A stretch of DNA of 64,000 nucleotides from Bacteroidales bacterium (GCA_023138875.1 JAGLOO010000003.1:1498-65497), one strand, 5' to 3'; positions 23,335 to 39,865 are shown, numbered from the stretch's first letter. A program made the numbers and translations. Notes: generated from the sequence alone by a model not told the origin.

Positions 23335-26300
23335 TCATTTTATTGGTTTAAACAACATGGAAGACGGAATATTAATCCTCTCGAGGTCCGGACTGGAAAT
23401 AAAAGCTTTGAGGTGAAATCCACCTCCTGCCTGAAAGTAACTGATCCGCAAAGTGTGCTTTCCTTCAGAGAGAATGATCTGTCCCTGTTTTTCAAGGGCA
23501 CCGTGTAAACCGTCGTTTGTTATGACAAGCTTCCCGTCGATATATAAATTACTTCCATCATTTGAATTCAGGTAAAAGGTGTACAGTGCTGTTGCCGGAA
23601 TTTCAATCGTCCCTTTGAGGATTAGTCCGAACTTATCCTGCTTAAAAGGAATCTGATCCAGTCCTATCTCATATATTGTACCAGTGCGCACGGGTTCGAG
23701 AGAAGTGAAATCCGGAATTCTTTCCCAATTGCCTTCATAATACTGATACCTCAGTCCATTTTTCTCCGGATTAACAAAAGTTAAGGAACTTGTTTTATAT
23801 GAACTGGGTTTGTAGCCGGTTCTGTAAACTTTCGCTTTAATGATTGTATTGCTGTTGATTTTAATTGGTTCTGAATAGACCGGGGAGTGTTCATCCGGTT
23901 CTTTCCCGTTAAGGGTGTATCTGATTATTGCATTTTCTTCTCCGCTGAGGATTTGTACAGTTGCTGTATCCGGTAGGAATAAAAGAGAATCTGCAGGTAT
24001 GATTTTTGGCACCGAAAGTCTGGATACCTGTATTAGATTTCTGACATTTTTTAAGACAAATTCATAATGCCCCGATTCCACCTGGTATTGTACCAAGGAA
24101 TCTTTGAATTTAATGAAAGAAGCATCTTTGCAATTTTCTGCTGTCCCATTATTGATGGTTACATCATCCGGATCTGTCGCAGGAAGCATTATGGTGGCTG
24201 TACTGTTAGCAGGAATATCAAGTTTTAAAATGAGATTGTTCCCATCCCATTCCCATCCCGATTCAATGTTACCGTAAACCGATTTATATGTGGCCCTGAC
24301 ATGGTTCAGGTTCCCGACAGGCCGGGGTTTAATAATGATGTTCCTGAAACCGGGATGTTCCGGATCGGGATTGATACCTGCAAGGGCCTGATAGAACCAC
24401 TGACATACACTGCCAAACATGGGGTGACTGTGAGAGGCATCTCCCCGCCATGTTTCCCAGATGGTGGTTGCCCCCTGGTCAATTGCATAGCCAAAGCTTG
24501 GGTAATCATGCTGGTTCATCATCGAGTATGCCAGGTCTACACGGCCATATCGGGTCAGAACGTCGAGTACAAGTGGTGTTCCCATCATTCCGGTATCAAA
24601 GTGCTCACCGGTATTGGATTCTATGTTGCATACGAGGGATTTAAATACTTCCCTGATCCTGTTTTCAGGAACCAGTCCAAATCCCAGGGCAAATACATTG
24701 GCGCCCTGACGTCCGATGGAGTAGGATTTGATGCTTTCCCGGTAATATTCCCTGTTAAAAGCTTCTTTCGTCTGAACAGCAAGATCTTTGAAATAACCGG
24801 AATCTTCAGGTATATTTAAAACAGATGCGATGTCAGACATTAGCTTCAAATCGTAATAGTAATACGCCGTACTGACCAGGGAAGGTGGTATTTCTGTTAC
24901 ATCAGGCGGCACCCATTCTCCCAGTTTCTCTTCATTGATGATCCCTGATCCGCCAGTAAGATGTGTCAGGTATTCAATCCATTTCTTCATTCCGGAATAG
25001 TGCTGCTTCAGAATGTCTTCATCGCCATAATAGAGGTACATGTACCAGGGAATGATGATATAAGCTGAACCCCATGCAGTCCCGCCACCCCCACTCTGGA
25101 AAGGCACAGTATTGGGAACATAACCGGTTGTGGTATTCTGGGCATCCTTCAGGTCGTTCATCCATTTTGTATAAAAGGAAGCCATATCAAAACTGAAGAT
25201 GGCGGCCTGTGCTGCAATCTGGCCATCTCCTGTATAACCCCTGCGCTCCCTGTGCGGACAATCGCTGGGAATGCCGCCATGCATATTCCCCAGCTGGGTC
25301 CTCTGAAAGTTGTCCAGTATTGTATTGAAAAGTTCATTTGAACTATGAAAAGTACCTGCCGGTTGCACATCGGTATTCACTACCACTCCTGTAATGTTAT
25401 CCAGGGAAAGGGGTACAGGAGACGATACATCAACGCAGCGGAATGCATGCCACGTAAACCGGGGCTCCCATACTTCAGATCCCAGCCCTTTCAGAATATA
25501 ACTGTCTGTTTGCCCATATCCGGAGCCTGCCTCTTCAGTAAAATTCATGGTAATGACCGTACCCCGGGGACCGTTCACATTAAGTTTTACCCATCCTGAG
25601 ATCATTTCACCAAGGTCATAGCGGTATATACCTTCCGCAGGTATGGTCATGCGAACCGGTTTGATAGTCCTGGTTATCCGGTCGGGCGGGGACATCTGTG
25701 CTCTTAATTTACCTGTTGGCGGACGCACTGCTTCTGACATTACCCGGTTATCTTTTGTAAAACCGGTGTTGTTCCACATCCCTTCCTCAAGGCGGGCATC
25801 ATAAATTTCACCACTGTATACTCCATTATGTAAAGCCGGACCAAAGGAGGCTTCCCAGGAACCATTGCTTAAGATATTTTCCCGGGTTCCATCTGAAAAT
25901 TCAATCTCAAATTGTGCAATAAACCGGGGAGAGTCGTAGGAATAGGGCAGATCCTCTTTTCTCTCATTTTGAAAATACCATCCATTGCCCAGGCATACTT
26001 CAAAGCTGTTTTCTCCCTGCCGGATAAAAGAGGTGATATCCCAGGTCTCATATAAGACCCGGGTGGACATGTTTCTGACCCCCTGTTCGTCAAAATCTGC
26101 CGGAGATTGCCGGCGATCGTAATTGGTGTGATTGGGTGATAATACGTGATCCCCCACTTTTACCCCATTGATATACAATTCATAATATCCGAGTCCGCTG
26201 ATATAGACACGGGCTTTGCTAATCCGGTGTGGAAATTCAGCGCTTTTACGGAAATGAATTGCAGGATCCATTCCTTCGGGTTTGACCTTTTGATATTGGT

Positions 26301-26736
26301 CCAAACCTATCCATTCTGCATGCCAGTCACCGGGATCAAGTCCCATCTCCCAGGTGGCGGTTTTGCTCCAGGCTGAAGGATTTCCATTGCGGTCCCATAT
26401 GCGAACTTTCCAGAAAACCTTCTCCCTGGGTTCCAGTTCCTCTCCCTGGTAAACAATATGCACCGACTGTCCTGACTCAATTTTCCCGGTATTCCAGAGA
26501 TCCCCTTTGTTTTCCGTAAGCAATTTTTCACTGCTTGCCACCAGAATGTGATAGGCAGTTTGTTTCTGCCCATTATGTTTCGCAAAAATTTTCCAATCCA
26601 AACGCGGATTTTGAATGTCAATCCCACACGGATCCTCCAGGTATTCACATTTCAGATCACTGACATTTGGCTGATCTGTCGTGCAACTGCTGGTGAACCA
26701 GACAAGGAATATTAAAATGATCGCTGGAACTTTCAT
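23335..26736 (-). CDS. GH78 alpha-L-rhamnosidase with C-terminal chitobiase-type and PA14 modules
   Basis: 1133-aa ORF. The N-terminus LKCEYLEDPCGIDIQNPRLDWK is typical of bacterial rhamnosidase N-domains, followed by an (alpha/alpha)6 core. IRYTLNGKEPDEHSPVYSEPI is a CHB_HEX_C-like module. The PA14-like tail spans 23338-23772. Confidence 0.85.
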   Translation of the reverse strand: MKVPAIILIFLVWFTSSCTTDQPNVSDLKCEYLEDPCGIDIQNPRLDWKIFAKHNGQKQTAYHILVASSEKLLTENKGDLWNTGKIESGQSVHIVYQGEELEPREKVFWKVRIWDRNGNPSAWSKTATWEMGLDPGDWHAEWIGLDQYQKVKPEGMDPAIHFRKSAEFPHRISKARVYISGLGYYELYINGVKVGDHVLSPNHTNYDRRQSPADFDEQGVRNMSTRVLYETWDITSFIRQGENSFEVCLGNGWYFQNERKEDLPYSYDSPRFIAQFEIEFSDGTRENILSNGSWEASFGPALHNGVYSGEIYDARLEEGMWNNTGFTKDNRVMSEAVRPPTGKLRAQMSPPDRITRTIKPVRMTIPAEGIYRYDLGEMISGWVKLNVNGPRGTVITMNFTEEAGSGYGQTDSYILKGLGSEVWEPRFTWHAFRCVDVSSPVPLSLDNITGVVVNTDVQPAGTFHSSNELFNTILDNFQRTQLGNMHGGIPSDCPHRERRGYTGDGQIAAQAAIFSFDMASFYTKWMNDLKDAQNTTTGYVPNTVPFQSGGGGTAWGSAYIIIPWYMYLYYGDEDILKQHYSGMKKWIEYLTHLTGGSGIINEEKLGEWVPPDVTEIPPSLVSTAYYYYDLKLMSDIASVLNIPEDSGYFKDLAVQTKEAFNREYYRESIKSYSIGRQGANVFALGFGLVPENRIREVFKSLVCNIESNTGEHFDTGMMGTPLVLDVLTRYGRVDLAYSMMNQHDYPSFGYAIDQGATTIWETWRGDASHSHPMFGSVCQWFYQALAGINPDPEHPGFRNIIIKPRPVGNLNHVRATYKSVYGNIESGWEWDGNNLILKLDIPANSTATIMLPATDPDDVTINNGTAENCKDASFIKFKDSLVQYQVESGHYEFVLKNVRNLIQVSRLSVPKIIPADSLLFLPDTATVQILSGEENAIIRYTLNGKEPDEHSPVYSEPIKINSNTIIKAKVYRTGYKPSSYKTSSLTFVNPEKNGLRYQYYEGNWERIPDFTSLEPVRTGTIYEIGLDQIPFKQDKFGLILKGTIEIPATALYTFYLNSNDGSNLYIDGKLVITNDGLHGALEKQGQIILSEGKHTLRISYFQAGGGFHLKAFISSPDLERINIPSSMLFKPIK

Positions 26737-26757
26737 ATGTCAAGTGGGCTTCGCATA

Positions 26758-27148
26758 TCATAGCCATGCTTTTTCTATTTGTCTTCTTAATTGTGGTATT
26801 AGCAGGTCTGGAAGTATCGTTCTCCGATCATTATCTCCTTTGCCGGAACGAACAACAATCTCATTGAGGTCGAAGTCAAAATCTTCCAGTGGTTTTTTCA
26901 TCTTTATTGTGTAAAAAACAAGCGCATTTAATGCCTGGTTTTGAGTGGATGCGGAAACCTTTCTTTCAACTGCAAGGGAAGTGAGGAATTCTCCAATCTC
27001 CTTCCCCCCACATCTCTTCAGGATATCTTTTATTATGGAAAATAATAAACCGGTATATCCATCCTATATAAGTCTTTTCTGTGCTATAGCTGAAATGATT
27101 TGTGCGAATTACTTCCCTGACATGGTCTAAAAACTTCGATCCTTTCAT
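26758..27148 (-). pseudogene. intI: integron-integrase (IntI-type tyrosine recombinase) pseudogene
   Basis: ORF 26966-27148 reads MKGSKFLDHVREVIRTNHFSYSTEKTYIGWIYRFIIFHNKRYPEEM (IntI N-terminal SAM-like domain). After the C-run at 27004-27009 the sense continues in another frame: EIGEFLTSLAVERKVSASTQNQALNALVF. It then jumps to DFDFDLNEIVVRSGKGDNDRRTILP...QIEKAWL-stop. The catalytic regions are missing. Confidence 0.75.
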
Positions 27149-27149
27149 C

Positions 27150-27323
27150 TGCCGATAAGTATTGATGTATATTCATGAAATATAATATATTATACTGCAT
27201 TTTGCTACAATATGGCTATGATATTCCATATTATACCGCAAACTTGATTTCTATTGAGTATCGGTATAATATGCTTATATTTATTGTATTGCCGCTATTG
27301 GCAGTAGAATATAATGTTCCATG
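27150..27323 (+). other. candidate attI region and attI/cassette-1 junction (G|TT at 27316|27317)
   Basis: AT-rich stretch directly upstream of the intI start. GTTCCATG at 27316-27323 is the exact reverse complement of CATGGAAC (28964-28971), the 5' box of the first attC-like site. Confidence 0.35.
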
Positions 27324-27678
27324 TCTTCAGATTCATAATCCTCTTTGTGGAGCAGATCCTTCAGATTCAGGAGATCGGTGAGCGGACTGTAGGTTACTCC
27401 GAATGGATTCTTCGTAACCATGAAGAGGCATTTCAAGTAAGGCTACAATTGGACCAGAAGTATTCGAATTTGATGACCGATTGAGTTATATCAACCGATA
27501 ATTATAAACAATGGAGCCAGTCTCATTTATCACCACGAACCCGGTATACAGATTGCTAAAGAAACATTTATGAAGATAAAATCACGATATCTGGGTGTTC
27601 TGGCAGCTGGATTTACAATGAGCAATATCCATGGTTCATGAAAGATTACTTTTAATACATAAAACGGAGGATTGAGGT

Positions 27679-28740
27679 ATGAAAAAGATCATCATTGGAA
27701 TAGCAGGGATTCTGGTAATTCTTATCATCATTTTTGTTCTAAAGCCAGCCCCCATTGACCCAGCGGCCTATATTCCTCCTGATGCTCAGGAGTTAACAGG
27801 AGTCTTGACACCAAACAACCTTTTGCAGGAGGCCGAGCTATTGGCTTTGGGAAAGATAAATGGTCCGGAAGAGGTTGCAGTGGACAGTCAGGGTCGTGTA
27901 TTTGGGGGAACACAGGATGGAAAAATAATTCGTCTTTTGCCAGATGGCAGGTTGGAGACATTTGCTGCAACTGGCGGTCGACCTCTGGGAATGAAATTTG
28001 ATGAGAATGAAAACCTGATTGTTTGCGATTCTTATAAAGGCCTGCTCTCTATCAATCCCCAGGGGGAGATCAAGATTCTGGCCACCTCAGCAGATGGAGT
28101 TCCATTTAAATTCACCGATGCCCTAGATATTTCCAGTGACGGGACAATCTACTTTACGGATGCAAGCTCCAAATATGACCAAAGCGAATATCTATATGAC
28201 CTGTTGGAATCAAAACCGCACGGTAGATTTCTGAGCTATAATCCAGCCACCGGTCAGGTAAAAGTCTTATTAAAGAATCTTTATTTTGCCAACGGGGTTG
28301 CCTTATCGCATGACGAAGACTTCGTATTAATTAACGAAACCTACCGTTACAGGATCACCAGGTATTGGTTGAGAGGCCCCAAAATGGGGACACACGAAAT
28401 CTTCATTGATAATCTACCCGGGTTTCCTGATAACATATCAAACAACCAGAAGGGCACATTCTGGCTGGCTCTTTTCACAATTCGAAACGAATCAGCAGAC
28501 AAACTCCACCCCTTTCCCTTTCGAAAAACCCTACTTTCTAAACTGCCCAAAGCTTTATGGCCGAAACCACATCCCTATGGCCTAGTCCTGGAACTGGACG
28601 CACATGGGAATATCATCCAAAGCTTACATGATCCCACAGGAAAAAACCTTAAAGAGATCACCTCCGCTCAAGAATATGGGGGTTATCTTTATCTGGGTGG
28701 TTTACACAACGATCGGATTGGAAAATATAAATTGCCATAA
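27679..28740 (+). CDS. strictosidine-synthase-like (SSL / SMP-30-type six-bladed propeller) protein with N-terminal TM anchor; cassette 1
   Basis: 353-aa ORF with GGAGG 8 nt upstream of the ATG. The pattern GPEEVAVDSQG ... LIVCDSYKGLL ... FTDALDISSDGTIYFTDAS ... FANGVALS ... GFPDNI is typical of bacterial SSL proteins. Confidence 0.75.
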   Translation: MKKIIIGIAGILVILIIIFVLKPAPIDPAAYIPPDAQELTGVLTPNNLLQEAELLALGKINGPEEVAVDSQGRVFGGTQDGKIIRLLPDGRLETFAATGGRPLGMKFDENENLIVCDSYKGLLSINPQGEIKILATSADGVPFKFTDALDISSDGTIYFTDASSKYDQSEYLYDLLESKPHGRFLSYNPATGQVKVLLKNLYFANGVALSHDEDFVLINETYRYRITRYWLRGPKMGTHEIFIDNLPGFPDNISNNQKGTFWLALFTIRNESADKLHPFPFRKTLLSKLPKALWPKPHPYGLVLELDAHGNIIQSLHDPTGKNLKEITSAQEYGGYLYLGGLHNDRIGKYKLP

Positions 28741-28963
28741 CGAAGGAATGGATCAGACTGCTAATCCAGATAATAAAAATGCGGGCAATTCTTCGTACGT
28801 ATCTTTTCCACTCCCACAAGCAATGAGGATTCTGTTGAGGAGTGAAATAACGAAGCCGAGGAAAATCAATAGCTATCAATCTGCTTTAATTTATCTGAAC
28901 GTCCATCTGGATTTTCCTAGACAAGAATTTTTCTCAAACAGTTAGTGAAGAATAATTGATTGA

Positions 28964-29063
28964 CATGGAACAAATCACTAAAGCCGACCGTGACGAGTGT
29001 CACGCACTTTGCAGAAAGGCAAAGTCCGCGCCAAGCTACGGCGGCTTAGTTCCACCGTTATAT
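28964..29063 (+). other. attC-like recombination site 1
   Basis: 5' box CATGGAAC and 3' box GTTATAT. The arms AACAAATCACTAAAGCCGACCG (28969-28990) and CGGCGGCTTAGTTCCACCGTT (29039-29059) form an imperfect inverted repeat with bulges. The central 48 nt holds two small hairpins. Confidence 0.6.
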
Positions 29064-29170
29064 GCTTTGGTTAAAATTATTGTTTTTAGGATAATAGAAA
29101 AATTTAGACAAATATGCTTAAACATGGGAAATTGTCATTTCGAAAAAATAACTAAGAAAGGAGTAATAAA

Positions 29171-31129
29171 ATGTATACCAAAAATTTAAATATCATTTTT
29201 ACAACTATCGTAGCAGTGTTTGTTTGCATGTTTATTTCCAAAGTAGCAGCCTCAGATTTATTATCTCAAGAGCAACCCGCTTTTTCATCGTCTGATGAGC
29301 TAGAATCACTAACTGTAGATAAAGCGGTTGATGGTAATATTTCAACACGCTGGGCTTCTGCTGAAGGTTCTGACCCAGAATGGATCTATGTTGATCTCGG
29401 CGTTGAGGCTTCGATTGATAGTGTTGTTTTGAACTGGGAGGTTGCATACGGCAAGGATTATGAAATCCAGGTTTCAAGCGATTCAAGCTCTTGGGAAACA
29501 GTTTATTCCATAACGGGCGGCGATGGCGGCATGGATGAACTCTCTGTTTCAGGGACTGGACGTTATGTGCGAATGTATGGCACTGCACGCGGTACGGTGT
29601 ATGGTTATTCATTATGGGAGTTTAAGATTTACGGGGCAATTGATGGAACAACAATGTATGATCTAAAGACTCAAGCGATTGGTTCCGGCTACGTCCATCC
29701 TTCAAGCGGCACTTATAGTGAAAACGTATGGGCTGAAATAGAAGCAATCCCCGATTCAGGGTGGCGGTTTGACCGCTGGGAAGGAGACTTGTCAGGAAAT
29801 ATGAATCCCACGGCCATTAAAATGGATTCCACCAAAAATGTGACTGCAGTTTTTGAACAAAAAATTATACCCACACAATCACCCGTAGGCATAAATGGAC
29901 AATTAAGTGTTGACGGCCTTAAGCTGGTTAACCAATATGGTAATCCAATTCAATTGAGAGGCATGAGCACCCACGGTCTTCAATGGTTTTGGAATAATTA
30001 TACAGATGAATCGCTGGATGTCCTTGCTTATGAGTGGGGCGCCGATATATTACGTATTTCAATGTATGTACAAGAAGGCGGTTGGGAAACAAACCCAGAT
30101 GGATTTACTGCTAAGGTCAGTACCTTAATAAATAAAGCAACAGACCGCGGAATGTATGCTTTGGTGGATTGGCACCAGCTGGAACCTCCCGATCCTAATT
30201 ATAATTTAACTAATGCAATTACCTTTTTTACGGATATCGCAACAGCACACCACGCCCAAAACAATATTATCTACGATATTTGTAATGAACCCAGTGATGT
30301 TTCCTGGACACAAATCAAGACTTATGCTGACACTTTAATCCCGATAATTCGTGCCATAGACCCAGATGCTGTGATTTCGATGGGTACTCATGGATGGTCT
30401 ACTTTAGGTGTTGCTGATGGAAAGTCACATCAGGATATTCTCGATAATCCGGTGAATTTCCCAAATATTATGTACGGTTTCCATTTCTATGCGGGTGGCC
30501 ACAAAAAACCCTATCTTGATGAACTTGATAAGGCATCAGATGTGCTACCTATATTTGTGACCGAGTGGGGAACACAATGGTATGATGGAGATCAGGAAAA
30601 TGACTTTGAAAATTCCCAAAAGTATATCAACTTGATGGCCGAGAAAAAGATTAGCTGGACAAATTGGAATTATTCTGATGACTTTCGTTCAGGAGCCGTT
30701 TGGAAAGATCCGCAGACAGGTGCTAATAATGGCCCCTGGACAGATGCTAATTTAAAGCCATCTGGTGTATGGGTTAAAGATAAAATTATGAATCCCCCTG
30801 ACGATTTTCCAACTGATGTCACATCGATTAGTGCAGATCCAACTGAATCGACAACGGCAGTTCCCGATAAATTTGAATTGCAACAGAACTATCCGAATCC
30901 ATTTAATCCAGAGACAAAAATAGATTTTAATGTAAAAGAACAATCACATGTTGAGTTAAGTATTTATGACATAAATGGGCGGTTAATCAAAAATCTTATT
31001 AATAGAAAGTATCCAGCTGGTTCATATGAAATTAAATTTAATGCAAAAAATTTATCATCAGGGATTTACTTTTATTCAATTAAAATGGGTGAATATCACT
31101 CAGTAAAGAAAATGATTTTAGTGCAATAA
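29171..31129 (+). CDS. GH5 endoglucanase (cellulase) with N-terminal F5/8 type C (CBM32-like) domain, bacterial repeat domain and T9SS C-terminal sorting domain; cassette 2
   Basis: AGGAG 7 nt upstream of the ATG. Discoidin-like AVDGNISTRWAS...WEFKIYG. GH5 motifs RGMSTHGLQWF, ICNEPS (acid/base) and VTEWGT (nucleophile). Tail LQQNYPNPFNPETKIDF...GIYFYSIKMG...KKMILVQ. Confidence 0.85.
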   Translation: MYTKNLNIIFTTIVAVFVCMFISKVAASDLLSQEQPAFSSSDELESLTVDKAVDGNISTRWASAEGSDPEWIYVDLGVEASIDSVVLNWEVAYGKDYEIQVSSDSSSWETVYSITGGDGGMDELSVSGTGRYVRMYGTARGTVYGYSLWEFKIYGAIDGTTMYDLKTQAIGSGYVHPSSGTYSENVWAEIEAIPDSGWRFDRWEGDLSGNMNPTAIKMDSTKNVTAVFEQKIIPTQSPVGINGQLSVDGLKLVNQYGNPIQLRGMSTHGLQWFWNNYTDESLDVLAYEWGADILRISMYVQEGGWETNPDGFTAKVSTLINKATDRGMYALVDWHQLEPPDPNYNLTNAITFFTDIATAHHAQNNIIYDICNEPSDVSWTQIKTYADTLIPIIRAIDPDAVISMGTHGWSTLGVADGKSHQDILDNPVNFPNIMYGFHFYAGGHKKPYLDELDKASDVLPIFVTEWGTQWYDGDQENDFENSQKYINLMAEKKISWTNWNYSDDFRSGAVWKDPQTGANNGPWTDANLKPSGVWVKDKIMNPPDDFPTDVTSISADPTESTTAVPDKFELQQNYPNPFNPETKIDFNVKEQSHVELSIYDINGRLIKNLINRKYPAGSYEIKFNAKNLSSGIYFYSIKMGEYHSVKKMILVQ

Positions 31130-31132
31130 AGC

Positions 31133-31262
31133 CATATAACAATGGTATGCACCAGAAAACAAACGCGTGCGGTTTCTTTGTAGGTTATCGTTCCGAGTAA
31201 GTGTGTGGCATTTTATCCATATTAGCCGCTGTGTTTGTTTCTGGTGATACCCCCCGTTATGC
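31133..31262 (+). other. attC-like recombination site 2
   Basis: Starts 4 nt after the GH5 stop. 5' box CATATAAC and 3' box GTTATGC. The arm GGTATGCACCAGAAAACAAAC (31144-31164) pairs with GTTTGTTTCTGGTGATACC (31233-31251) over 19 bp, with two single-base bulges. Confidence 0.65.
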
Positions 31263-31412
31263 AAAGGAGACGAAAATGAACCCCAGACAAAAGAAAGCTC
31301 TATCTATCGGATATAGCAGTTATCATTCTAATGGGCCTTTTGGCGCCATGGCAAGAAATTCAAGCAATAAGAAATTGGGACGCATCCCATTTTTGAAAAA
31401 GAGGGTCGGAAT

Positions 31413-32474
31413 ATGAAAAAAAATAATTCTCGGGATAGTTGGGATTCTGGCAATTCTAATAATAATCTTTCTTCTCCGATCGGCCTCCATTGCCCCAGCG
31501 GCTTATACCCCTCCTAAATCGCAAGAGTTAGCGGGTGTGCTGGCACCAAACAACCTTTTGCAGAAGGCCGAGCTTTTGGCCTTGGGGAAGATTAATGGTC
31601 CGGAAGAGGTGGCAGTGGACAGTCAGGGCCACGTCTATGGAGGAACGCAGGATGGAAAAATTATGTGTCTTCTGCCGGATGGCAAGCTGGAGACTTTTGC
31701 CGAAACCAAAGGTCGCCCCTTAGGCATCCAATTTGATAAGAATGAAAACCTAATTGTCTGCGATGCCTATAAGGGTTTACTCTCCATTAATCGCCAAGGG
31801 AAAATCAAAGTTCTGGCCACCTCAGCGGATGGAGTTCCCTTCAAGTTCACCGATGCCTTGGATATTTCCAGCGATGGGATTATCTATTTTACGGATGCAA
31901 GCTCCAAGTATGTGCAAAATGAGTACCTCTATGACCTTTTAGAATCAAAACCGCATGGCAGATTCCTGAGCTACGATCCAGCCACCGGCCAGATTAAGAT
32001 TCTATTGAAGAACCTTTATTTTGCCAACGGCGTGGCCTTATCTCAGCAGGAGGACTTCGTTTTGATTAATGAGACTACCGTTACAGGATCGTCCGGTACT
32101 GGTTGAAGGGCCCCAAGGCGGGAACACACGAGATCTTTATTGATAATCTGCCAGGATTTCCTGATAACATTTCAAGCAACCATAAGGGAACATTTTGGCT
32201 GGCTCTTTTTACGGTTCGGAATGAAGCCGTGGACAAACTCCATCCCTCTCCCTTTCTAAAAGCTCAAATGTCAAAACTGCCCAAAGCCTTATGGCCTAAG
32301 CCAAAGCCTTATGGCCTGGTCTTGGCTTTGGATGAACAAGGGAAAATCATCCAAAGCTTACATGAACCCACAGGAAAACACCTTAAGGAGATCACTTCCG
32401 CTCGGGAATATGGCGGTTATCTCTATCTGGGCAGTATACATAACGATCGGATCGGAAAATATAGATTACCTTAA
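31413..32474 (+). pseudogene. second strictosidine-synthase-like gene, frameshifted; cassette 3
   Basis: Paralog of 27679-28740. The ATG at 31413 is followed by an A8 run (31416-31423); with A7 it reads MKKIILGIVGILAILIIIFLL..., matching copy 1. A second -1 shift near 32075 (GAGAC-TACCG vs GAAACCTACCG in copy 1) splits ORFs 31537-32106 and 32103-32474. Confidence 0.75.
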
Positions 32475-32654
32475 TGCTTTATTAATATACGAACACAGAG
32501 GCCGCCCCAAAATAATGACATAAAGTTTGCTTCCTATTTCATTTAGATCCCTGAAAGGAGGCGAGACTGTGTCATTCAAAGAATAAGTAAAAAGGGGGCA
32601 GATTTATTTACTGAGAAGTAAGAGTATCACCTATTTTATGAAAAATAAATTGCC

Positions 32655-32730
32655 TGACAACCGCAATATCACGGACTGGCAATTCCGCTGCGCTCCATCG
32701 CCAGCCGGTTATGCGGAGCGTTCTGCGATC
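32655..32730 (+). other. attC-like recombination site 3 (less canonical)
   Basis: 5' TGACAAC and 3' GTTCTGCGATC. The arm CCGCAATATCACGGACTGGC pairs with GCCAGCCGGTTATGCGG, with three bulges and one mismatch. The 5' box does not complement the cassette-3 start. Confidence 0.45.
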
Positions 32731-32820
32731 AAAAATAAGTAATGGAAATAGTTGGGAGGTACGTTTATTTATAAGTTACCCAACATAATAAAAATGAGCA
32801 ATGATTAATAAAATACGATT

Positions 32821-33861
32821 ATGATTTCACCATTATTTAGCCATCTTTTAATACCCTATATTATTGCTATGTTTTTGGCAATAACAATGGGCGGTAGCGG
32901 AACTGCACCTGCATTCTCAGCGGCTTATGGAGCTAATGTCATAAAGAAAAGTTTGATTCCCGGTTTATTTGGAATTATGGTTTTCCTTGGTGCAATTATA
33001 GCGGGGAAAGGTACCGCAACTACAGTAGGGAAAGATTTATTAGCACCTGAAATGATGTCATTTACGGTGGTATCAATTATTCTTTTTTCAGTAACTATTG
33101 CTCTGTTGATTGCTAATTTGTTTGGAATTCCACAATCTACTAGTCAAGCAACGGTTCTATCAGTTACTGCCGTTGCATTATATTTCAATGACCTGAATAC
33201 TGACAAATTATTTATGGAAATCCTGCCAACTTGGTTTATTTTACCGATAGGTTCATTTTTCATCAGCTTATTTATTGGTAAATATATTTATCGTCCAATG
33301 AGAAAAAGGGGATATACTCTGCCTAGAGCTCAAAATGAGAATCTTAAACCCGTTTGGAATGGATTATTGGTATTAATGTCATTATACGTTGCTTTTACCA
33401 TTGGAGCGAACAATGTAGCCAATGCTGCTGGACCAATTGCATCAATGACTGCAAATGAACTTAACATATCCATAGATGAAAATTTTATAATAATAATGAT
33501 ATTGTCAACCCTGATTGTTGCACCTAGTTTTGGAATAGGAAGTTCAATTTTTGGACATAAAATTGTAAAGAATACAGGAAAAGAAATTGTATTATTTGGG
33601 AAATTCGAAGCCGTTATAATTGCTTTTGTGTCCGCCAGCTTATTGCTATTAGCCTCTATAACAAAGGGAATCCCTTCTTCATTAGTCCAATTGAATGTCG
33701 CAGCAATTTTAGGAATCGGGGTTGCAAAATTAGGAGCTAAGAACATCTTTAAAAAAACAGCAGTCAAAAAATTCTTTTTAATGTGGGTAATAGCACCAAT
33801 TATTGCATTTTCATTATCATTATTCCTAACATATTTGGCTGACCAATATGGATACTTATAA
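32821..33861 (+). CDS. PiT-family inorganic phosphate transporter; cassette 4
   Basis: 346-aa polytopic membrane ORF. The duplicated PiT signatures are GGSGTAPAFSAAYGAN and IGANNVANAAGP. Confidence 0.8.
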   Translation: MISPLFSHLLIPYIIAMFLAITMGGSGTAPAFSAAYGANVIKKSLIPGLFGIMVFLGAIIAGKGTATTVGKDLLAPEMMSFTVVSIILFSVTIALLIANLFGIPQSTSQATVLSVTAVALYFNDLNTDKLFMEILPTWFILPIGSFFISLFIGKYIYRPMRKRGYTLPRAQNENLKPVWNGLLVLMSLYVAFTIGANNVANAAGPIASMTANELNISIDENFIIIMILSTLIVAPSFGIGSSIFGHKIVKNTGKEIVLFGKFEAVIIAFVSASLLLLASITKGIPSSLVQLNVAAILGIGVAKLGAKNIFKKTAVKKFFLMWVIAPIIAFSLSLFLTYLADQYGYL

Positions 33862-34183
33862 AATTTTCGTTGGGTAATAACAATGTATATAAAAAACAGG
33901 CGGGATAGCAGTAAAATGAAGAGTTGTAGCCCGCTTTAACTATTGTGTAACTTGATAGTGTTGAAGCCCGCAAGCGCCTACTTTTCATACACTTAACGTT
34001 GAGCAAGGAAGTAGGCCGCCCGATCAAGGAAAAGATCTCAGTAAAGAAATACAGGATTGTGTCAAACAGTAGCCTCCCAGAAGCTGAACTTTGCTCATTT
34101 GAAGCTGGTGGCGTTGTCCAAAGTAAATGGAAGACTGAACCAGATGCACAAGCTTAGTTGAAGTGGGCAGAACAAAAAAATTA

Positions 34184-34248
34184 GATCGCAGAACAAATCA
34201 CTAAAGCCGACCGCTTGCAGCGCCGCTTAGTTCCACCGTTCTGCGATC
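34184..34248 (+). other. attC-like recombination site 4 (compact, ~60 bp)
   Basis: GATCGCAGAAC (34184-34194) is a perfect 11-bp inverted repeat of GTTCTGCGATC (34238-34248). The inner arms are identical or near-identical to site 1, with a 7-nt centre and unpaired spacers AAAT / TCCACC. Confidence 0.7.
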
Positions 34249-34472
34249 AAAACATAGAGATGGGCGTAGGTAAGAGGTTCGTTTATTTTGAAGTTGTATG
34301 CCGTCCGGAAAGCCCTTCCCGCATTTGGCACATTTGCAAAGCCTCACAAGCCAACCTGCAACCTAAGCTTTGCAAAAGAGCCAAATTTTCCCAGTCGCCA
34401 GAAACTACAAATAATTACCAGTATTTTGATTTACTGGCGTTTTTTAGATTTCCAAAATATGCCATATTTTCT

Positions 34473-34480
34473 TATCTTTG
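34473..34480 (+). promoter_or_regulatory. candidate Bacteroidota -7 promoter element (TAnnTTTG) for abiEi/abiEii
   Basis: TATCTTTG lies 19 nt upstream of the ATG at 34499. Motif match only. Confidence 0.25.
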
Positions 34481-34498
34481 GCAAAAATTGGGTTTAGA

Positions 34499-35266
34499 AT
34501 GCCAAAGGTTATAGAAAATAGACTGATCGAAGAATTTAAGGACAGGGAGTACTTCACGAGAGAAGAGCTCTTTGACTTCTACCGCTACTTCGAACCAGAA
34601 TTGAAAGAAGGAACTTTCGGATGGAGAATCTATGATCTGAAAAAGAGGAACATCATCAAGCCTATAAAAAGAGGGCTTTATGTAATTACTTACAAACTCA
34701 GATATAAACCGGATATCTCACCAAGTCTACTAAAAATCGCCAAGCAATTAACAGAACGATTCGGTGAGATAAAACACTGTATTTGGGAAACGGTGTGGCT
34801 GAATGAATTTACCCAACACCAAACAAGCAGATCCACCCTATTCATCGAAATAGAAAAAGGCTTTGAGGAGTCATTATTTTACGAGTTGAAGGATACGGTA
34901 CGAAGAGAAGTATTTCTAAATCCGGATGAAAAAGCCATCGATTTCTACATTGCAGAAAGCAATCAGCCGATTATCATAAAGAAGCTGCTCACAAGAGCAC
35001 CGCTTTCAAAAAGAATGGAGAAGAGGATCAAGTTCTACACACCCACACTTGAAAAAATCCTGGTGGATTTGTTCGCAGAAGAGAAGCTATTCTATTTTGT
35101 GAAAGGTTCTGAATTGATGCACATATACGAAAATGCTATCAACAGCTACACTATCAATTTCACCAAGCTTTTCAGCTATGCCAAACGTAGAGAACGGGAA
35201 CAGGATATCAAGCAGTTCATGACCAATCATATGTTTCACCTTGTAAAAGACATTATCGATAATTAA
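34499..35266 (+). CDS. AbiEi-type antitoxin-like protein (type IV TA, wHTH N-terminus)
   Basis: The track ORF starts at TTG 34478; the ATG at 34499 gives MPKVIENRL.... The N-terminus FTREELFDFY...WRIYDLKKRNIIKPIKRGLY fits the AbiEi N-domain pattern. It sits directly upstream of an AbiEii-like gene. Confidence 0.6.
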   Translation: MPKVIENRLIEEFKDREYFTREELFDFYRYFEPELKEGTFGWRIYDLKKRNIIKPIKRGLYVITYKLRYKPDISPSLLKIAKQLTERFGEIKHCIWETVWLNEFTQHQTSRSTLFIEIEKGFEESLFYELKDTVRREVFLNPDEKAIDFYIAESNQPIIIKKLLTRAPLSKRMEKRIKFYTPTLEKILVDLFAEEKLFYFVKGSELMHIYENAINSYTINFTKLFSYAKRREREQDIKQFMTNHMFHLVKDIIDN

Positions 35267-35291
35267 AGACAAATGCTTTACAGAAGAGTGG

Positions 35292-36089
35292 TTGGATCAA
35301 TTCAAAAAGCAAAAAGACCACAAGCGAGTCGACAAGATCATTCTTGAAAAAATGATTTATGCGCTGCATTTATTAGAGCGACTCAAATCAAATGGGCATG
35401 ACTTTGTATTTAAGGGTGGCACAAGTCTGGTCTTGCTGCTGGACGAAGGCAACCGATTCTCCATTGATATCGACATAATCAGCAAGACCAGTCAGGAAGA
35501 CTTGGAAGGTATTCTCGACAAGATCATTGATTCATCACATTTTTCCGAATGGAAGCTGGATGAACATCGCAGTTATCAACCAGGAGTGCTGAAAGCGCAC
35601 TATAAGTTTCCCTTTGATACCATCATTCAGGGTTCTGGAACTATTCTTCTGGATGTACTAATTGAAGATTCCATTTACCCGGAACTAATCGAAAGACCTA
35701 TAGCAACAAAATGGATTGAAACAGATAAAGAGACCATGGTCACAGTACCTTCCATAGATTCAATCACGGGAGATAAACTGACTGCTTTTGCTCCCAATAC
35801 TATTGGGATTCCTTATTTCAAAGGAAAAGACCAACAGCCGTTCTCCATGGAGATTTGCAAGCAGCTATTCGATCTGAGTAAGTTGTTCGAGAAGATTGAA
35901 AACATGGAAATCGTAGCAGCAAGTTTTAAAGCTTTTGCTGAACAGGAAATTGAATATCGGAAAAATGGAAATCCGGCATTAGCACTAACTCTTGACAAAG
36001 TGTTAAAAGACATGATAGATACGTGCGCCATACTGGTAAAAAGAGAGCGTGGGACCAATGAGGAGAAGGCCAAGACATTAAGGAATTGA
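35292..36089 (+). CDS. AbiEii/AbiGii-family nucleotidyltransferase toxin-like protein, reading frame apparently disrupted near both ends
   Basis: FVFKGGTSLVLLL...RFSIDIDI is the family core. The track start is TTG. A well-placed ATG at 35273 is in another frame. After the stop at 36087-36089 a different frame continues as ...IKELTIEHLDWNFLNRLKRQPDKSGFYYWYKTVELVSNTQ-stop (36198). Confidence 0.6.
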   Translation: MDQFKKQKDHKRVDKIILEKMIYALHLLERLKSNGHDFVFKGGTSLVLLLDEGNRFSIDIDIISKTSQEDLEGILDKIIDSSHFSEWKLDEHRSYQPGVLKAHYKFPFDTIIQGSGTILLDVLIEDSIYPELIERPIATKWIETDKETMVTVPSIDSITGDKLTAFAPNTIGIPYFKGKDQQPFSMEICKQLFDLSKLFEKIENMEIVAASFKAFAEQEIEYRKNGNPALALTLDKVLKDMIDTCAILVKRERGTNEEKAKTLRN

Positions 36090-36207
36090 CTATTGAACAT
36101 CTGGACTGGAATTTCTTGAACCGTTTGAAGCGACAGCCAGATAAATCAGGCTTCTATTATTGGTACAAGACCGTTGAATTGGTCAGTAATACACAATAAA
36201 CAGAAAA

Positions 36208-37488
36208 ATGATCACACAAGATAATTTCAAGGAACTTCTATTGAAACTTGGCTTCTCCGAGAAGGGAGATATTTTCACCAAAAAGTTCAAAGAAGTAGAT
36301 GCCTACCTTAAGGTTGACTACAAGGCTGAAAAACTTATCTATCCTGAAGACAAGGGATTGACTATAAACGAAAGGCAAACCTGTAACTTCTCTCAAAAGG
36401 AAAACTTTGTTGTTTTTGAATGTGTTCATAGACTTTTTGAGAAGGGCTATAATCCACTACACATTGAACTTGAACCTAAATGGAAAGTTGGACATGGTGC
36501 CAGTGGTGGTCGCGCGGATATTATGGTGAAAGACAATTCAGGGAAGTCTTGACTCATAATTGAATGCAAGACAGAAGGAAAGGAATTTGAAGATGCCTGG
36601 AAAAAGACGTTAATAAATGGAGGTCAATTACTTTCCTATGTAAAACAAGCGGGAAGCACGCAATTTGTTTGTTTATACGCTTCTGACTATTTGGATAACA
36701 AAGTAGTGCCAAACTATTACTTAATCACATTAAAGGACAACAAAAGACTACTGGACGAACTTGCTGAAAAAACACCACTATCATATAAAAAAGCAAAAGG
36801 ATTAGACGTTGAAGATATTTTTAAAGCCTGGAAAGAAACCTATGCTCAGGACTACGCAACCAAAGGAATATTTGAAGATGATATTCCTGCTTATGAAATA
36901 GGAAAAACTAAGTACTCTCTTAAGGACTTGAGCACCATTAGCAGCAATGATATTCAAGGGAAGTATCACAAATTTGCTACCATATTGAGACAGCACAATG
37001 TGTCCGGTCGTGAAAATGCCTTTGACAAGCTGGTTAATTTGTTTCTGTGTAAAATAGTTGATGAAACCAACAACCCAAATGAACTCAAATTCTATTGGAA
37101 AGGAATCGCTTATGATGATCAATTTAGCTTAATCGACAGATTACAAAAGCTTTATCAGGACGGAATGCAACGATTTCTGGGAGAAGATGTGGCCTATATC
37201 AGTGCAGAACAGATCGATAAAGCCTTTGATTTTTTTAAAAACGATCCGGATGCAACCAAAGATACGATCAAGAAATATTTCAAAGAGCTCAAGTTCTTTA
37301 ATAACAACGACTTCGGGTTTATTGACGTCCATAATGAAAAGTTGTTTTATCAAAACACTGCCATTCTGCTGAAGATCGTCCAAATGTTACAGGATATAAG
37401 ATTGAAAACTGAAGACGTTTCCTTCGTCTTGCGGGAACCAATATTTACTATGTCATGTTTCTCAGAATTTGTGATGCCAACTGGTTGA
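36208..37488 (+). pseudogene. restriction-modification N6-adenine DNA methyltransferase (type I/IIG-like) N-terminal portion, with in-frame stop and 3' truncation
   Basis: ORFs 36208-36552 and 36691-37488 share one frame, separated by TGA at 36550-36552 (..KDNSGKS*LIIECKTEGKEF..). The family-like sequence runs to ..LLKIVQMLQDIRLKTED and then degenerates. No SAM-binding or NPPY/F region is present. Confidence 0.6.
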
Positions 37489-38648
37489 CTAAAAAGGGGG
37501 AGGGGTGAAAAATCCGCTTCCTTTAGCCGCCAGTGGGTACTCATAAGGCTGGTTTTTTCGCCTTCTTTGTCAACCTGGTAATAGACAGTCAGGATTGAAC
37601 CATCCTCAAGCTGGACAGATGCGGGATAGCCCAGATCAGAGTTTATAGCCGGGTTTATCATTATTTCTTTGCCTGTTTCCCATGTTTTACCACCATCCCT
37701 GCTAATGCAGGCCTTTTCTCCAAAAGGTTCCCGCCGAACGCCATAAGAGACCAAAAGCAAACCATTTTGTAATTGCATAAGATGGGGTGGGTAACCCCAT
37801 ATTCCAGTTTTATGGCTGGTGGTCCAGCTTTTACCCCCATCGTAGCTTTCCGACTGCCTCAGGTGTGACTGATTGTGGTCTGCTGGATTGTATCGAAACA
37901 TAGCCACAAGTTTGCCATCTGAGAGTTCAACCACATGGGGCTCATGGGCAAAAGTTACCTGGTCCTCACTGTCTAATGGAATGGTGGAAATGAGCTGCCA
38001 CGATTGTCCGTCATCGGTAGACTGCTCTACCCCGATTATTTTCTTATCATTCACATAGCCAGTGCCCACATAGAGCAATCTGCCATCGGATAGTTCTATT
38101 GGCTCATGAGGGGCAGAAACAACCTGTTTTACGGGTTCTTCCCAGGATTTACCACCATCCAGGGACCTCCTGGTCCAGTTACCTATCCAGTATTTTTTGG
38201 TTTCATCTCCCAGTTTATCTGCATGACGTTTCCAGGATGGATTCCTGTCATAAAACTTTTTTGTATCAAAAGCCAAAGAGGTAAACCAGTTTACCAGCAG
38301 GGTTCCCTTTGTTGTCTCAAGGATTCCTGCATCTCGGTCATCGAGCGGCGTATTGTTTATTGTCTCGGGATCGGTCCAGGTTTCGCCATGATCGGTACTG
38401 CGAATCATCTGGGTAATTCCAAACGGGCATACATGGGCATCGCGGTTACCGGAAAAGACCACCAGCAGTTCGCCCGACCTGGTTTTGGTAATACTTGGCC
38501 AGCCAATGTATTTGCCAGGCTGCTTGCAAATGACCCTGGTGCTAATTATATCTGCATAAAGGCCAGGTTTTTCAACACTGAGAACAGGTATCGAGGTGAA
38601 AAATAAAATGGTGAAAACAATCTTCAAGCATTTGTTAATCAGTAACAT
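37350..38648 (-). CDS. BNR/Asp-box sialidase-superfamily beta-propeller protein
   Basis: Five Asp-boxes: STDHGETW, SLDGGKSW, STDDGQSW, SYDGGKSW, SRDGGKTW. The start MLLINKCLKIVFTILFF at 38648 avoids overlap with the upstream gene. The last ~45 codons overlap the methylase fragment and look like read-through (see findings). Confidence 0.75.
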   Translation of the reverse strand: MLLINKCLKIVFTILFFTSIPVLSVEKPGLYADIISTRVICKQPGKYIGWPSITKTRSGELLVVFSGNRDAHVCPFGITQMIRSTDHGETWTDPETINNTPLDDRDAGILETTKGTLLVNWFTSLAFDTKKFYDRNPSWKRHADKLGDETKKYWIGNWTRRSLDGGKSWEEPVKQVVSAPHEPIELSDGRLLYVGTGYVNDKKIIGVEQSTDDGQSWQLISTIPLDSEDQVTFAHEPHVVELSDGKLVAMFRYNPADHNQSHLRQSESYDGGKSWTTSHKTGIWGYPPHLMQLQNGLLLVSYGVRREPFGEKACISRDGGKTWETGKEIMINPAINSDLGYPASVQLEDGSILTVYYQVDKEGEKTSLMSTHWRLKEADFSPLPLFSQPVGITNSEKHDIVNIGSRKTKETSSVFNLISCNIWTIFSRMAVF

Positions 38649-38680
38649 ATCGATATTAATTACAAATAAACGAATCCTGA

Positions 38681-39865
38681 CTATAGATGAAGCTTTTCTT
38701 TTTTGACCGGAAGTATATTCCGCACGATCCATTTCCTCATTTCCTGACCCTCCGGGCTTTGCTGCGGATAAGAGATAAAATCAAGTTTTATCCCCAGTTT
38801 TTGTTCGATTAAATGTGCTATTATTGGCCAGATAATTCCAATGTCACCAACTATTGGAATACTATTTTCCAGCCGGGCGAAACCAGACATTTCCATTCGA
38901 AATGGGATACTCATTAATTTTGTCTTTGGCATCCCTTTATCAATGGCCTGCTGTACAGTGCCGGATTCTTTTTCGAAATCACAGGCTTTTTTCAAATTCG
39001 GATCGAAATCAATGCGTATCAACGTCTTCCCTTTCAGACTGTACGTTGGATATCCTTCCCAATTTGACCAGATTCCATGACCGGTGTATGTTTCAAACGG
39101 TCCGTCATGGATTTCCTGGGTTAAGGCAACTGCAGACTCAATAATCACATCAGCGCTGCTCATCATTTCAGCAATTCTCGCTGTTCGTTCCATTATTGAA
39201 ATCGAATCTGCCAGAGCTGTACCAACCATTCCACCACCGATCAGTTGTGGAACTGTAACCAGACACGGAACGTCTTTCTTTACGGCAGCACCTAACATTG
39301 TGCGCTCATCTGCTCCTGCTCCGGCGATAACCTCAAAAGGGAGCCCTTTTGATTTTGCAATAAACAGAATCTCTTTTGCCAGATTCTCAGTTCGCAAACC
39401 CATCGGGTATGCCATATTTCCAGCCGCTTTGATGATCACATCACCTTCAAGTGACAGGGCTTTATCAATTATGCCGGTGTCGATGATCATCTCTTTTTTT
39501 AGCTGATCAAGCAATTCCGGAGACATTTTAGTGATTTCGAAAATCTCGCCACGTGGCAGTATGTTTCCAGGGAATCCCAATTTCTTACCATCAACTCTTT
39601 TAACTTCATCCAAAACACCTGCCATTTCATGCGCCACAACCGCCGAACTTGTTGTTACGCCATCAACGACTCCTTTATTAATAAGTTCAGCAATAAGCGT
39701 TGTAACGCCTTCATGAAGGTTGGGTCCGCTGCCTGTGACGACAACTACTTTACCCTGTTTTTTTTTAGCTTCGACAATACGATCTACAGCTCTGTCAACC
39801 ATTTCCCTGCCTGATGGCTGTAAATCATTATATAACTGTTTTATAAGCTCCCTGTTTGAATTCAT
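38681..39865 (-). CDS. conserved hypothetical protein, possibly deoxyhypusine-synthase-like Rossmann fold
   Basis: 394-aa ORF 11 nt downstream of kdsB. VVVVTGSGPNLHEGVTTLIAELINKGVVDGVTTSSAVVAHE loosely recalls the DHS-family pattern. The assignment is weak. Confidence 0.45.
   Translation of the reverse strand: MNSNRELIKQLYNDLQPSGREMVDRAVDRIVEAKKKQGKVVVVTGSGPNLHEGVTTLIAELINKGVVDGVTTSSAVVAHEMAGVLDEVKRVDGKKLGFPGNILPRGEIFEITKMSPELLDQLKKEMIIDTGIIDKALSLEGDVIIKAAGNMAYPMGLRTENLAKEILFIAKSKGLPFEVIAGAGADERTMLGAAVKKDVPCLVTVPQLIGGGMVGTALADSISIMERTARIAEMMSSADVIIESAVALTQEIHDGPFETYTGHGIWSNWEGYPTYSLKGKTLIRIDFDPNLKKACDFEKESGTVQQAIDKGMPKTKLMSIPFRMEMSGFARLENSIPIVGDIGIIWPIIAHLIEQKLGIKLDFISYPQQSPEGQEMRKWIVRNILPVKKEKLHL

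Follow-up and report, generated by a model that had tools for sequence, protein, structure and literature searches.

An integron with a decayed integrase gene and a probably frozen cassette array beside a rhamnosidase gene of a Bacteroidales bacterium

The DNA analysed here (the window) is a 64-kb stretch from an uncultured Bacteroidales bacterium that carries the remnant of an integron integrase gene (intI), a divergent attachment region (attI), and a short array of gene cassettes separated by attC sites. Integrons are best known for gathering antibiotic-resistance genes in Proteobacteria; here the intI remnant adjoins a GH78 alpha-L-rhamnosidase gene (23335-26736). An earlier reading of the sequence (the original prediction) had placed the element inside a glycan-utilization locus. 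The left flank is clearly such a cluster, with SusD-like genes, but the right flank is not clearly of this kind. We read the locus as a sedentary chromosomal integron whose integrase has been lost and whose remaining array is frozen and partly eroded, with a probability of about 0.9. Its features are as follows, with the crossover point written as a slash in G/TT.

26758-27148, minus strand: intI pseudogene
27149-27318, plus strand: attI region with left arm ...GCCGCTATTGGCAGTAGAATATAATG and crossover G/TT at 27316-27318
27276-27283, plus strand: candidate Bacteroidota-type -7 box TATATTTA, facing the cassettes (pattern TAnnTTT[GA])
27317-29057, plus strand: cassette 1, an intact strictosidine-synthase-like / SMP-30 lactonase-like gene (open reading frame (ORF) 27679-28740; Str_synth, SSL_N and SGL domains)
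28965-29063, plus strand: attC 1, of the Bacteroidota family (68.3 bits, E 4e-17; folding z = -3.4)
29058-31256, plus strand: cassette 2, an intact GH5 cellulase gene (ORF 29171-31129; Cellulase 168 bits, Por_Secre_tail 51 bits)
31134-31262, plus strand: attC 2, long and divergent (32.3 bits, E 1e-6; folding z = -2.2 and -3.2)
31257-32720, plus strand: cassette 3, a frameshifted paralogue of the cassette 1 gene (pseudogene at ~31414-32474, from nucleotide alignment)
32652-32726, plus strand: attC 3, decayed (13.7 bits, E 0.35, fourth best match in the window)
32721-34238, plus strand: cassette 4, an intact PHO4-family (phosphate/sulfate permease-like) transporter gene (ORF 32821-33861)
34188-34244, plus strand: attC 4, short, of the Bacteroidota family (54.3 bits, E 5e-13; the palindrome extends over 34184-34248)
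34239-37420, plus strand: cassette 5 or the fused remains of several cassettes, open-ended, starting at R' of site 4

The remaining array comprises five units, three of them with intact genes. The layout is divergent, with intI on the minus strand and every cassette ORF and all four attC matches on the plus strand. Four units each consist of an ORF followed by an attC, in keeping with the original claim of at least four attC-bounded cassettes; the fifth, which runs from 34239 to ~37420, is open-ended and lacks an attC. The four attC matches lie within 5.3 kb.

The minus-strand segment 26758-27148, which the original prediction had likened to the N-terminal domain of integron integrases, was translated in three frames (26737-27148). 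It reads MKGSKFLDHVREVIRTNHFSYSTEKTYIGWIYRFIIFHNKRYPEEM, undergoes a +1 frameshift near 27005, continues as GGKEIGEFLTSLAVERKVSASTQNQALNALVF..., and ends in a stop at 26758, 21 nt from the GH78 start codon. The remnant keeps the N-terminal SAM-like domain and part of the box I region. Once repaired, the 129-residue product scored 114.5 bits (E 6e-33) on the NCBIfam model TIGR02249 ("integron integrase") versus 26.9 bits on XerA, and its only Pfam match was Phage_int_SAM_4 (88 bits), which bears out the assignment. Alignment with database relatives revealed an internal deletion of ~57 codons and nothing left beyond the box I region; the catalytic half of the gene is gone and the window intI is clearly non-functional. 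Its score falls below the TIGR02249 cut-off of 265 bits because only ~130 codons survive.

A scan of genomes with intI fragments returned 590 relatives, the best fifteen of which are Bacteroidota metagenome-assembled genomes (MAGs; 63-88% identity). Full-length intI genes are present on a 5.2-Mb Saccharicrinis contig (L010) and in L009 (319 and 327 aa); these nearest full-length relatives score 383 and 412 bits on TIGR02249 across the whole model, above the cut-off. The L009 integrase aligns end to end and almost gap-free with the VchIntIA structure 2A3V (301 bits), and is gap-free across the IntI-specific region. Contigs L003-L006 carry intact intI genes with the catalytic HxxR...Y region.

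The ~57-codon deletion of the window (26830-26930) is found in at least three remnants on differing contigs and in differing contexts, including L002 (2470-3051) and P0003, and takes out the stretch between ...PLDxFDF and DLNEI.... As a short direct repeat, TTGACTT, stands at both ends of this stretch in intact intI genes, the pattern suggests recurrent repeat-mediated deletion rather than shared ancestry.

Fifteen sites were aligned with an imposed canonical attC structure, consisting of an R stem, a 5-nt spacer, an L stem with two single-base bulges, a loop, and a 6-nt spacer. In this alignment 90% of cells are paired and nine pairs show compensatory changes; none of 500 shuffles reached the observed value, and slid controls likewise did not approach it. 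A covariance model built from the alignment (R1) yielded 93 sites in 82 sources, 91 of them outside the window in 81 loci, and for 85 of these 91, from many phyla, the strand is the one divergent from intI. The 93 sites then served to rebuild the model (R2), which was applied unfiltered to the whole window, both strands included. Its four best matches, all on the plus strand, are the four palindromes that had been proposed as attC sites (28964-29063, 31133-31262, 32655-32730 and 34184-34248); three matches are clear and one is weak, and the next match in the window has E=7. A specificity control with 391 kb of GH78-related loci gave one match, which lies in the sister locus L083.

The sites show the expected parts. 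attC 1 consists of R'' ATGGAAC, the 5-nt spacer AAATC, L'' ACTAAAGCCGACC ... L' GGCGGCTTAGT, the 6-nt spacer TCCACC, and R' GTTATAT. The corresponding elements of attC 2 are R'' ATATAAC, spacer AATGG, L'' TATGCACCAG..., L' ...CTGGTGATA, spacer CCCCCC, and R' GTTATGC; every modelled pair in this site is standard, and the site lies outside the model training. attC 4 folds with z = -5.2 into an R stem, an unpaired 5/6-nt spacer, and an L stem with bulged bases. All modelled pairs are standard or nearly so at sites 1, 2 and 4, and DNA folding agrees at these three (z -2.2 to -5.2) but not at site 3 (z near 0), where the structure is only weakly present. Site 3 also differs from how it had been drawn: R'' is better placed at GCCTGAC (32652-32658), in which AAC has mutated to GAC, than at the ..AAC of 32655-32661, with R' at GTTCTGC. 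The site is homologous to attCs of a Halomonas integron (alignment score 64 with L078, against 9 +/- 4 for shuffles), and the Halomonas sites that resemble it are attC model matches themselves.

Sites 1 and 4 belong to one local family, with which sites 2 and 3 are unrelated. The two share exact blocks of 22 nt and 16/17 nt, beyond chance expectation in the window, and the blocks AAC-N5-ACTAAAGC and GCTTAGT-N6-GTT recur in L002, L005, L006, L009, L011 and L012, always on the strand divergent from intI. Motifs of attC 1 are also found in the L017 array beside intI, and the relative L011 holds at least ten attC sites in 9 kb. Members of this Bacteroidota family are ~100 nt long and have a conserved internal hairpin (GTGTCACGC..CTTTGCAGAAAGGCAAAG..). 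A loop insert of 40-75 nt (…AACCGAGCGAAGCGAGCTCATGAGTCACCGCAGGTGACGAATAACGG…) recurs in several of them and extends the sites to 141-175 nt (L011 5483-5623, 6165-6339, 7019-7159 and 8654-8828; L012 751-892; L009 1677-1817). In three MAGs the attC matches lie on the intI strand and downstream of intI, an "inverted" arrangement (L035, Acidiferrales; L066, Binatia; L031, Bacteroidetes).

The junctions between units carry the footprint of cassette insertion. For cassettes 1, 2 and 4, the original prediction had paired the 5' boundary of the unit with R'' of its own downstream palindrome, and a script recovered all of the quoted strings at their positions with perfect complementarity: GTTCCATG (27316-27323) with CATGGAAC (28964-28971) for cassette 1, the 8-nt pair GTTATATG (29057-29064) with CATATAAC (31133-31140) for cassette 2, and the 11-nt pair GTTCTGCGATC (32720-32730) with GATCGCAGAAC (34184-34194) for cassette 4. 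Complementarity of the first pair reaches 10 nt (GTTCCATGTC, 27316-27325, with GACATGGAAC, 28962-28971). Beyond the fixed GTT/AAC, 7, 5 and 8 bases are matched at predetermined positions, for which the chance expectation is ~4^-20. The start of cassette 3, TTATGC, predicts an R'' of GCATAAC, and since the Halomonas alignment places R'' of attC 3 at GCCTGAC, the pair that was missing from the original prediction is present in decayed form.

Cassettes have been inserted at G/TT beside intI, and the attI at which this occurred is found in other lineages. It is common to the window, L083, L106 and L016 (79-87% identity); the four lineages share ...GCCGCTATTGGCAGTAGAATATAATG and then part directly after G/TT into four different first cassettes. 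The final ~70 nt are nearly identical in the window and L083, compared with 87% identity in the GH78 gene. When the intI-proximal regions of 11 loci were aligned in search of a clade-wide attI, only the window and L083 were clearly alike, and a later BLAST search for attI homologues added L016 and L106. The candidate -7 box is near-consensus and lies within the most conserved part of attI, and it could form part of a putative Pc promoter that would drive the cassettes.

A metagenome scan with the rhamnosidase gave 40 loci, among which the window and L083 are each other's closest relatives (87% nucleotide identity). L083 has the same attI beside the same GH78 gene and an attC match of 48.5 bits (E 1e-10); its intI remnant is more heavily deleted, with lesions that differ from those of the window, and its homology to the window goes no further than the proposed crossover at 27317, with other cassettes beyond. 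On the short contig L106, attI is fused directly to the rhamnosidase start and intI is wholly gone. The attI thus adjoins the GH78 gene in the window, L083 and L106, as expected of a sedentary integron, and in L016 a homologous attI occurs at another genomic locus. These three loci hold other cassettes at the attI junction, in line with the comparison that the original prediction had proposed, and six relatives lack the element. In these six (L085, L087, L088, L089, L090 and L098; 75-83% nucleotide identity in the GH78 gene) an FG-GAP-repeat gene stands directly upstream of the rhamnosidase gene, and no intI and no attC were found at the GH78 locus; this arrangement is the empty state. Together, the window, L083 and L106 form a natural decay series in which intI is partly, mostly and wholly deleted, respectively.

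Mobility between two integrons of the clade is seen for one cassette. The L017 integron, from another MAG, also contains the RhuM-family cassette of L083 (88% nucleotide identity), and the homology passes the attC and ends at R'. As this cassette is present in both, cassettes of this pool have moved between integrons.

The FG-GAP/VCBS-like gene of the relatives without the integron encodes 517-637 aa and lies ~10-50 nt upstream of the rhamnosidase gene; in L090 it is preceded by a homologue of the window gene at 38681-39865. The window has no trace of it and has a BNR gene instead, and a gene replacement therefore accompanied either the gain of the integron or its later truncation.

The cargo of the array is varied. 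The leader of cassette 1 is unusually long (360 nt), and 27453-27591 is 78% identical to positions 7193-7332 of L006, a Bacteroidota MAG contig, where this segment lies downstream of an attC match (7790-7846) on the far side of that contig's intI; the leader segment is possibly what remains of an older, fused cassette. The GH5 enzyme of cassette 2 has an F5/8 type C (discoidin) domain and a C-terminal sorting domain of the type IX secretion system (T9SS). When this cassette was sought in other integrons, homologues at 69-73% (P0122-P0124) were found in ordinary chromosomal clusters without attC. The cassette 3 gene aligns with 27678-28740 at 81% nucleotide identity over the ORF only, with two gaps. 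The transporter of cassette 4 scores 148 bits on PHO4 and 200 bits on CysP-like sulfate permease. Positions 32704-32777 and 34222-34295 are 72% identical over 74 nt that include the attC end, and the first ~55 nt past the crossover are alike; owing to this similarity, cassettes 4 and 5 both start TTCTGCGATCAAAA..., which suggests that a conserved segment flanks this type of attC in the donor pool.

The fifth unit and its distal end contain the following features.

34478-35266, plus strand: AbiEi (297 bits)
35292-36089, plus strand: AbiEii, C-terminally truncated (profile positions 16-259 of 344)
36208 to ~37417, plus strand: N-terminal third of a type IIG restriction-modification gene (REase_MTase_IIG 646 bits, profile positions 1-397 of 1271)
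37417-37500, strand not applicable: distal break, at which the array abuts the 3' end of a BNR/sialidase-like gene (37350-38732, minus strand)

Of the toxin-antitoxin kind that the original prediction called typical of sedentary chromosomal integrons, an AbiE pair is present, but its toxin, AbiEii, is truncated. Past the AbiEii stop, another frame of 36090-36207 reads IEHLDWNFLNRLKRQPDKSGFYYWYKTVELVSNTQ; this could be the toxin's displaced C-terminal end, in which case an internal deletion or a frameshift, rather than simple truncation, inactivated AbiEii. The type IIG fragment has an in-frame TGA at 36550-36552, and a search of the PDB sequences with this fragment gave no match.

Two candidates for an attC of cassette 5 were rejected. 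GCAGAACAGATCGATAAAGCC at 37204-37224 lies inside the restriction-gene frame, lacks a 3' half, and has no model match; 18 of its 21 positions agree with the R''-spacer-L'' half of attC 4, which may reflect chance or a relic. A weak match at 37329-37369 (E 9) was dismissed. Model R2, run on the whole window, gave no attC match downstream of cassette 5.

At the distal break, type IIG homology stops around residue 403, and the BNR_2 domain extends to residue 380 of a 460-residue product. The BNR/sialidase-like ORF runs beyond its conserved domain, over the break, and into antisense restriction-gene sequence, and the last 25-50 residues of the protein are probably a chimeric tail made by deletion.

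Arrays of relatives have one ORF per attC interval, and their cargo comprises enzymes (FGE-sulfatase, FAD oxidoreductase, amidohydrolase, esterases) together with toxin-antitoxin modules. Because they mix enzymes and toxin-antitoxin modules in this way, the cargo of the window is typical of the clade. A comparison of the window cassettes with the 81 intI loci found none in common; only the T9SS tail domain matched.

A history is proposed in which an ancestor of this Bacteroidales lineage held a complete platform directly upstream of the GH78 gene, made up of intI, a divergent attI and, probably, a promoter within attI. A working integrase would have inserted circular, promoterless cassettes at attI by recombining its G/TT with the G/TT of the folded bottom strand of the cassette attC. 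Recombination of this kind would account for each cassette starting with TT and bases complementary to its own R''. The sharing of the RhuM cassette and the variable first cassettes are indirect evidence that IntI may have catalysed both excision and insertion here. Subsequently, intI would have decayed by frameshift, deletion between short direct repeats, and loss of its catalytic half. The distal part of the array would have been lost by deletion, pseudogenes would have arisen from one cassette gene, the AbiEii toxin gene and the type IIG gene, and one attC would have been left without its AAC core. We infer this order of events, and likewise that the array is probably inactive at present.

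Several points weigh against this reading. The fifth unit has no attC, and the only junction that marks it as a cassette is therefore at its 5' end. attC 3 taken alone is not significant (E 0.35, folding z near 0), and in the cassette 3 pair just 5 of 7 positions agree. The models were trained with sites 1 and 4 included, although these are near-identical to family members elsewhere, and the calibration that gave the E-values of the attC models was shortened. The part of the window intI that would carry the IntI-specific domain and the catalytic residues is deleted. Finally, the window is a metagenome scaffold. All of the tests that the original prediction had named as able to overturn an integrase-dead integron were run, and none went against it.

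The alternative that survives best, though it is unlikely, is that the array is not frozen and that an intact IntI from elsewhere in the genome still shuffles this integrase-less attC cluster in trans. Continued activity would fit the good state of attC 1, 2 and 4, an attI arm that differs less between the window and L083 than the coding sequence next to it, differing first cassettes in three sister lineages whose intI genes decayed independently, and the presence of two intI contigs (L006 and L007) in one MAG of the clade. However, no second intI is seen in the 64-kb window, and as the intI lesions are unshared, the cassette differences may equally predate each loss. attC 3, AbiEii, the restriction-modification gene and the cassette 3 gene are moreover decaying, as expected without turnover.

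A metagenomic mis-assembly that joined the integron of one organism to the polysaccharide-utilization locus (PUL) of another is very improbable. The window is a metagenome scaffold, and assemblers are known to be misled by attC repeats (PMC9024848), but two contigs (41 kb and 76.8 kb, the second from a Bacteroidales MAG in NCBI) carry the same proteins. In addition, L083 and L106, independent contigs of another study, show the same adjacency of attI and GH78, and the GC content is continuous across the region (0.34-0.45). It is hardly credible that the palindromes are ordinary intergenic repeats or terminators (like repetitive extragenic palindromes or miniature inverted-repeat transposable elements) in a coincidental layout with an unrelated Xer or phage integrase remnant, since, common as intergenic palindromes are and even though site 3 folds no better than shuffles, the fragment scores 114 bits on IntI versus 27 on XerA, the repeat family occurs elsewhere only in arrays divergent from intI, the 5/6-nt spacing, canonically placed bulges and covarying pairs are those of attC, the junction complementarity far exceeds chance, and Rfam and tRNA scans of the whole window gave no matches, so that no other Rfam family accounts for the sites.

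With the locus read as an integrase-less sedentary integron, two of its cassettes may bear on how cassettes arise. Their paralogous genes each have nearer relatives outside cassettes: the cassette 1 gene is 92.7% identical in nucleotide sequence to a non-cassette gene in L127, the cassette 3 gene is 86.8% identical to one in L128, and the homology of both paralogues to these genes stops 10-40 nt outside the ORF. These paralogous cassettes carry unrelated attCs, one of gammaproteobacterial type. Relatives of the strictosidine-synthase-like protein (74-92% aa identity) occur in widely separated phyla (Thermodesulfobacteriota, Syntrophaceae, Maribacter), mostly on short contigs (L127-L130); in four contexts of this gene examined outside the window, no attC and no visible palindromes were found. 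The gene looks like a highly mobile single-gene unit.

It is tempting, but quite doubtful, to propose that a Bacteroidota integron lineage places secreted glycan-degrading enzymes such as the T9SS-tailed GH5 beside PUL genes, and that two of its cassettes are recent de novo formations. If this were true, the paralogues and their non-cassette counterparts would provide before/after pairs for the unsolved question of how ORFs acquire an attC. The locus and its relatives are in any case material for studies of cassette origin.

The original prediction had called integrons rarely described in this phylum. This agrees with a 2022 survey of complete Bacteroidetes genomes, which found a single integron that was complete, in Salinibacter ruber M1 (PMC9024848), but reviews already list Bacteroidota among the integron-bearing phyla (PMC8618304, PMC9668308), and in our genome scan Bacteroidota MAGs yielded an entire clade of intact IntI genes accompanied by the attC family seen here. 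Bacteroidales and Marinilabiliales of marine or sediment origin have an IntI clade and an attC family of their own, and one such integron had its fixed place next to a glycan-degradation gene, where it exchanged cassettes. A secreted cellulase specific to the phylum is part of its cargo, and a full-text literature search found no paper linking integron cassettes with PULs. What is new is a well-documented integron in a phylum with few descriptions of such elements; its attC family is specific to the clade, and one of its cassettes, for a secreted carbohydrate-active enzyme, is unusual. Conceptually the locus is ordinary, and it leaves the notion of an integron unchanged.

Comparison with known systems places the locus among familiar types. 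The attC sites have the canonical layout of mobile-integron attCs (R'' ..AAC, 5-nt spacer, L'', variable loop, L', 6-nt spacer, R' GTT..), including the extra base past the third position of L'' and another past GCCG, and a gammaproteobacterial attC from the genome scan (L027) shows the same layout. The first bulged base is C in the aadA7 attC and A in the Bacteroidota family (top strand). Unlike the canonical sites, those of the Bacteroidota family are ~100 nt long, with the conserved internal hairpin.

With at least two nearby attCs and no integrase passing the IntI threshold, the locus resembles a cluster of attC sites that has no integron integrase (CALIN) as defined by IntegronFinder (PMC9024848), and software would probably class it as such. 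Unlike an orphan cluster, however, it still has an intI pseudogene and attI attached, as befits a degraded complete integron.

The Vibrio cholerae superintegron (VchIntIA / IntI4; V. cholerae repeats, VCR) shares the integrase family, as seen from the alignment of L009 with 2A3V, as well as a clade-specific conserved attC family and a cargo of toxin-antitoxin and defence genes; sedentary integrons are known to carry toxin-antitoxin and restriction cassettes (bioRxiv 10.1101/2024.07.02.601686). The locus differs from it in its dead integrase and in having two of four attCs foreign to the local family, one of them Halomonas-like. Where large arrays hold tens of cassettes with highly similar attCs, this truncated array holds five units.

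The closest analogue is provided by the chromosomal integrons of Xanthomonas, which have an inactivated intI and lie at the ilvD locus (PMC8618304). The present integron differs in its phylum, attC family and anchor gene, in its much shorter array with larger cassettes (1.5-2.2 kb), and in the truncation of the far end. It shares with them a fixed position beside a housekeeping or metabolic gene, independent decay of intI, and arrays that were lineage-specific and then frozen (PMC8618304); the equivalent of the ilvD locus is here the GH78 locus of the window, L083 and L106.

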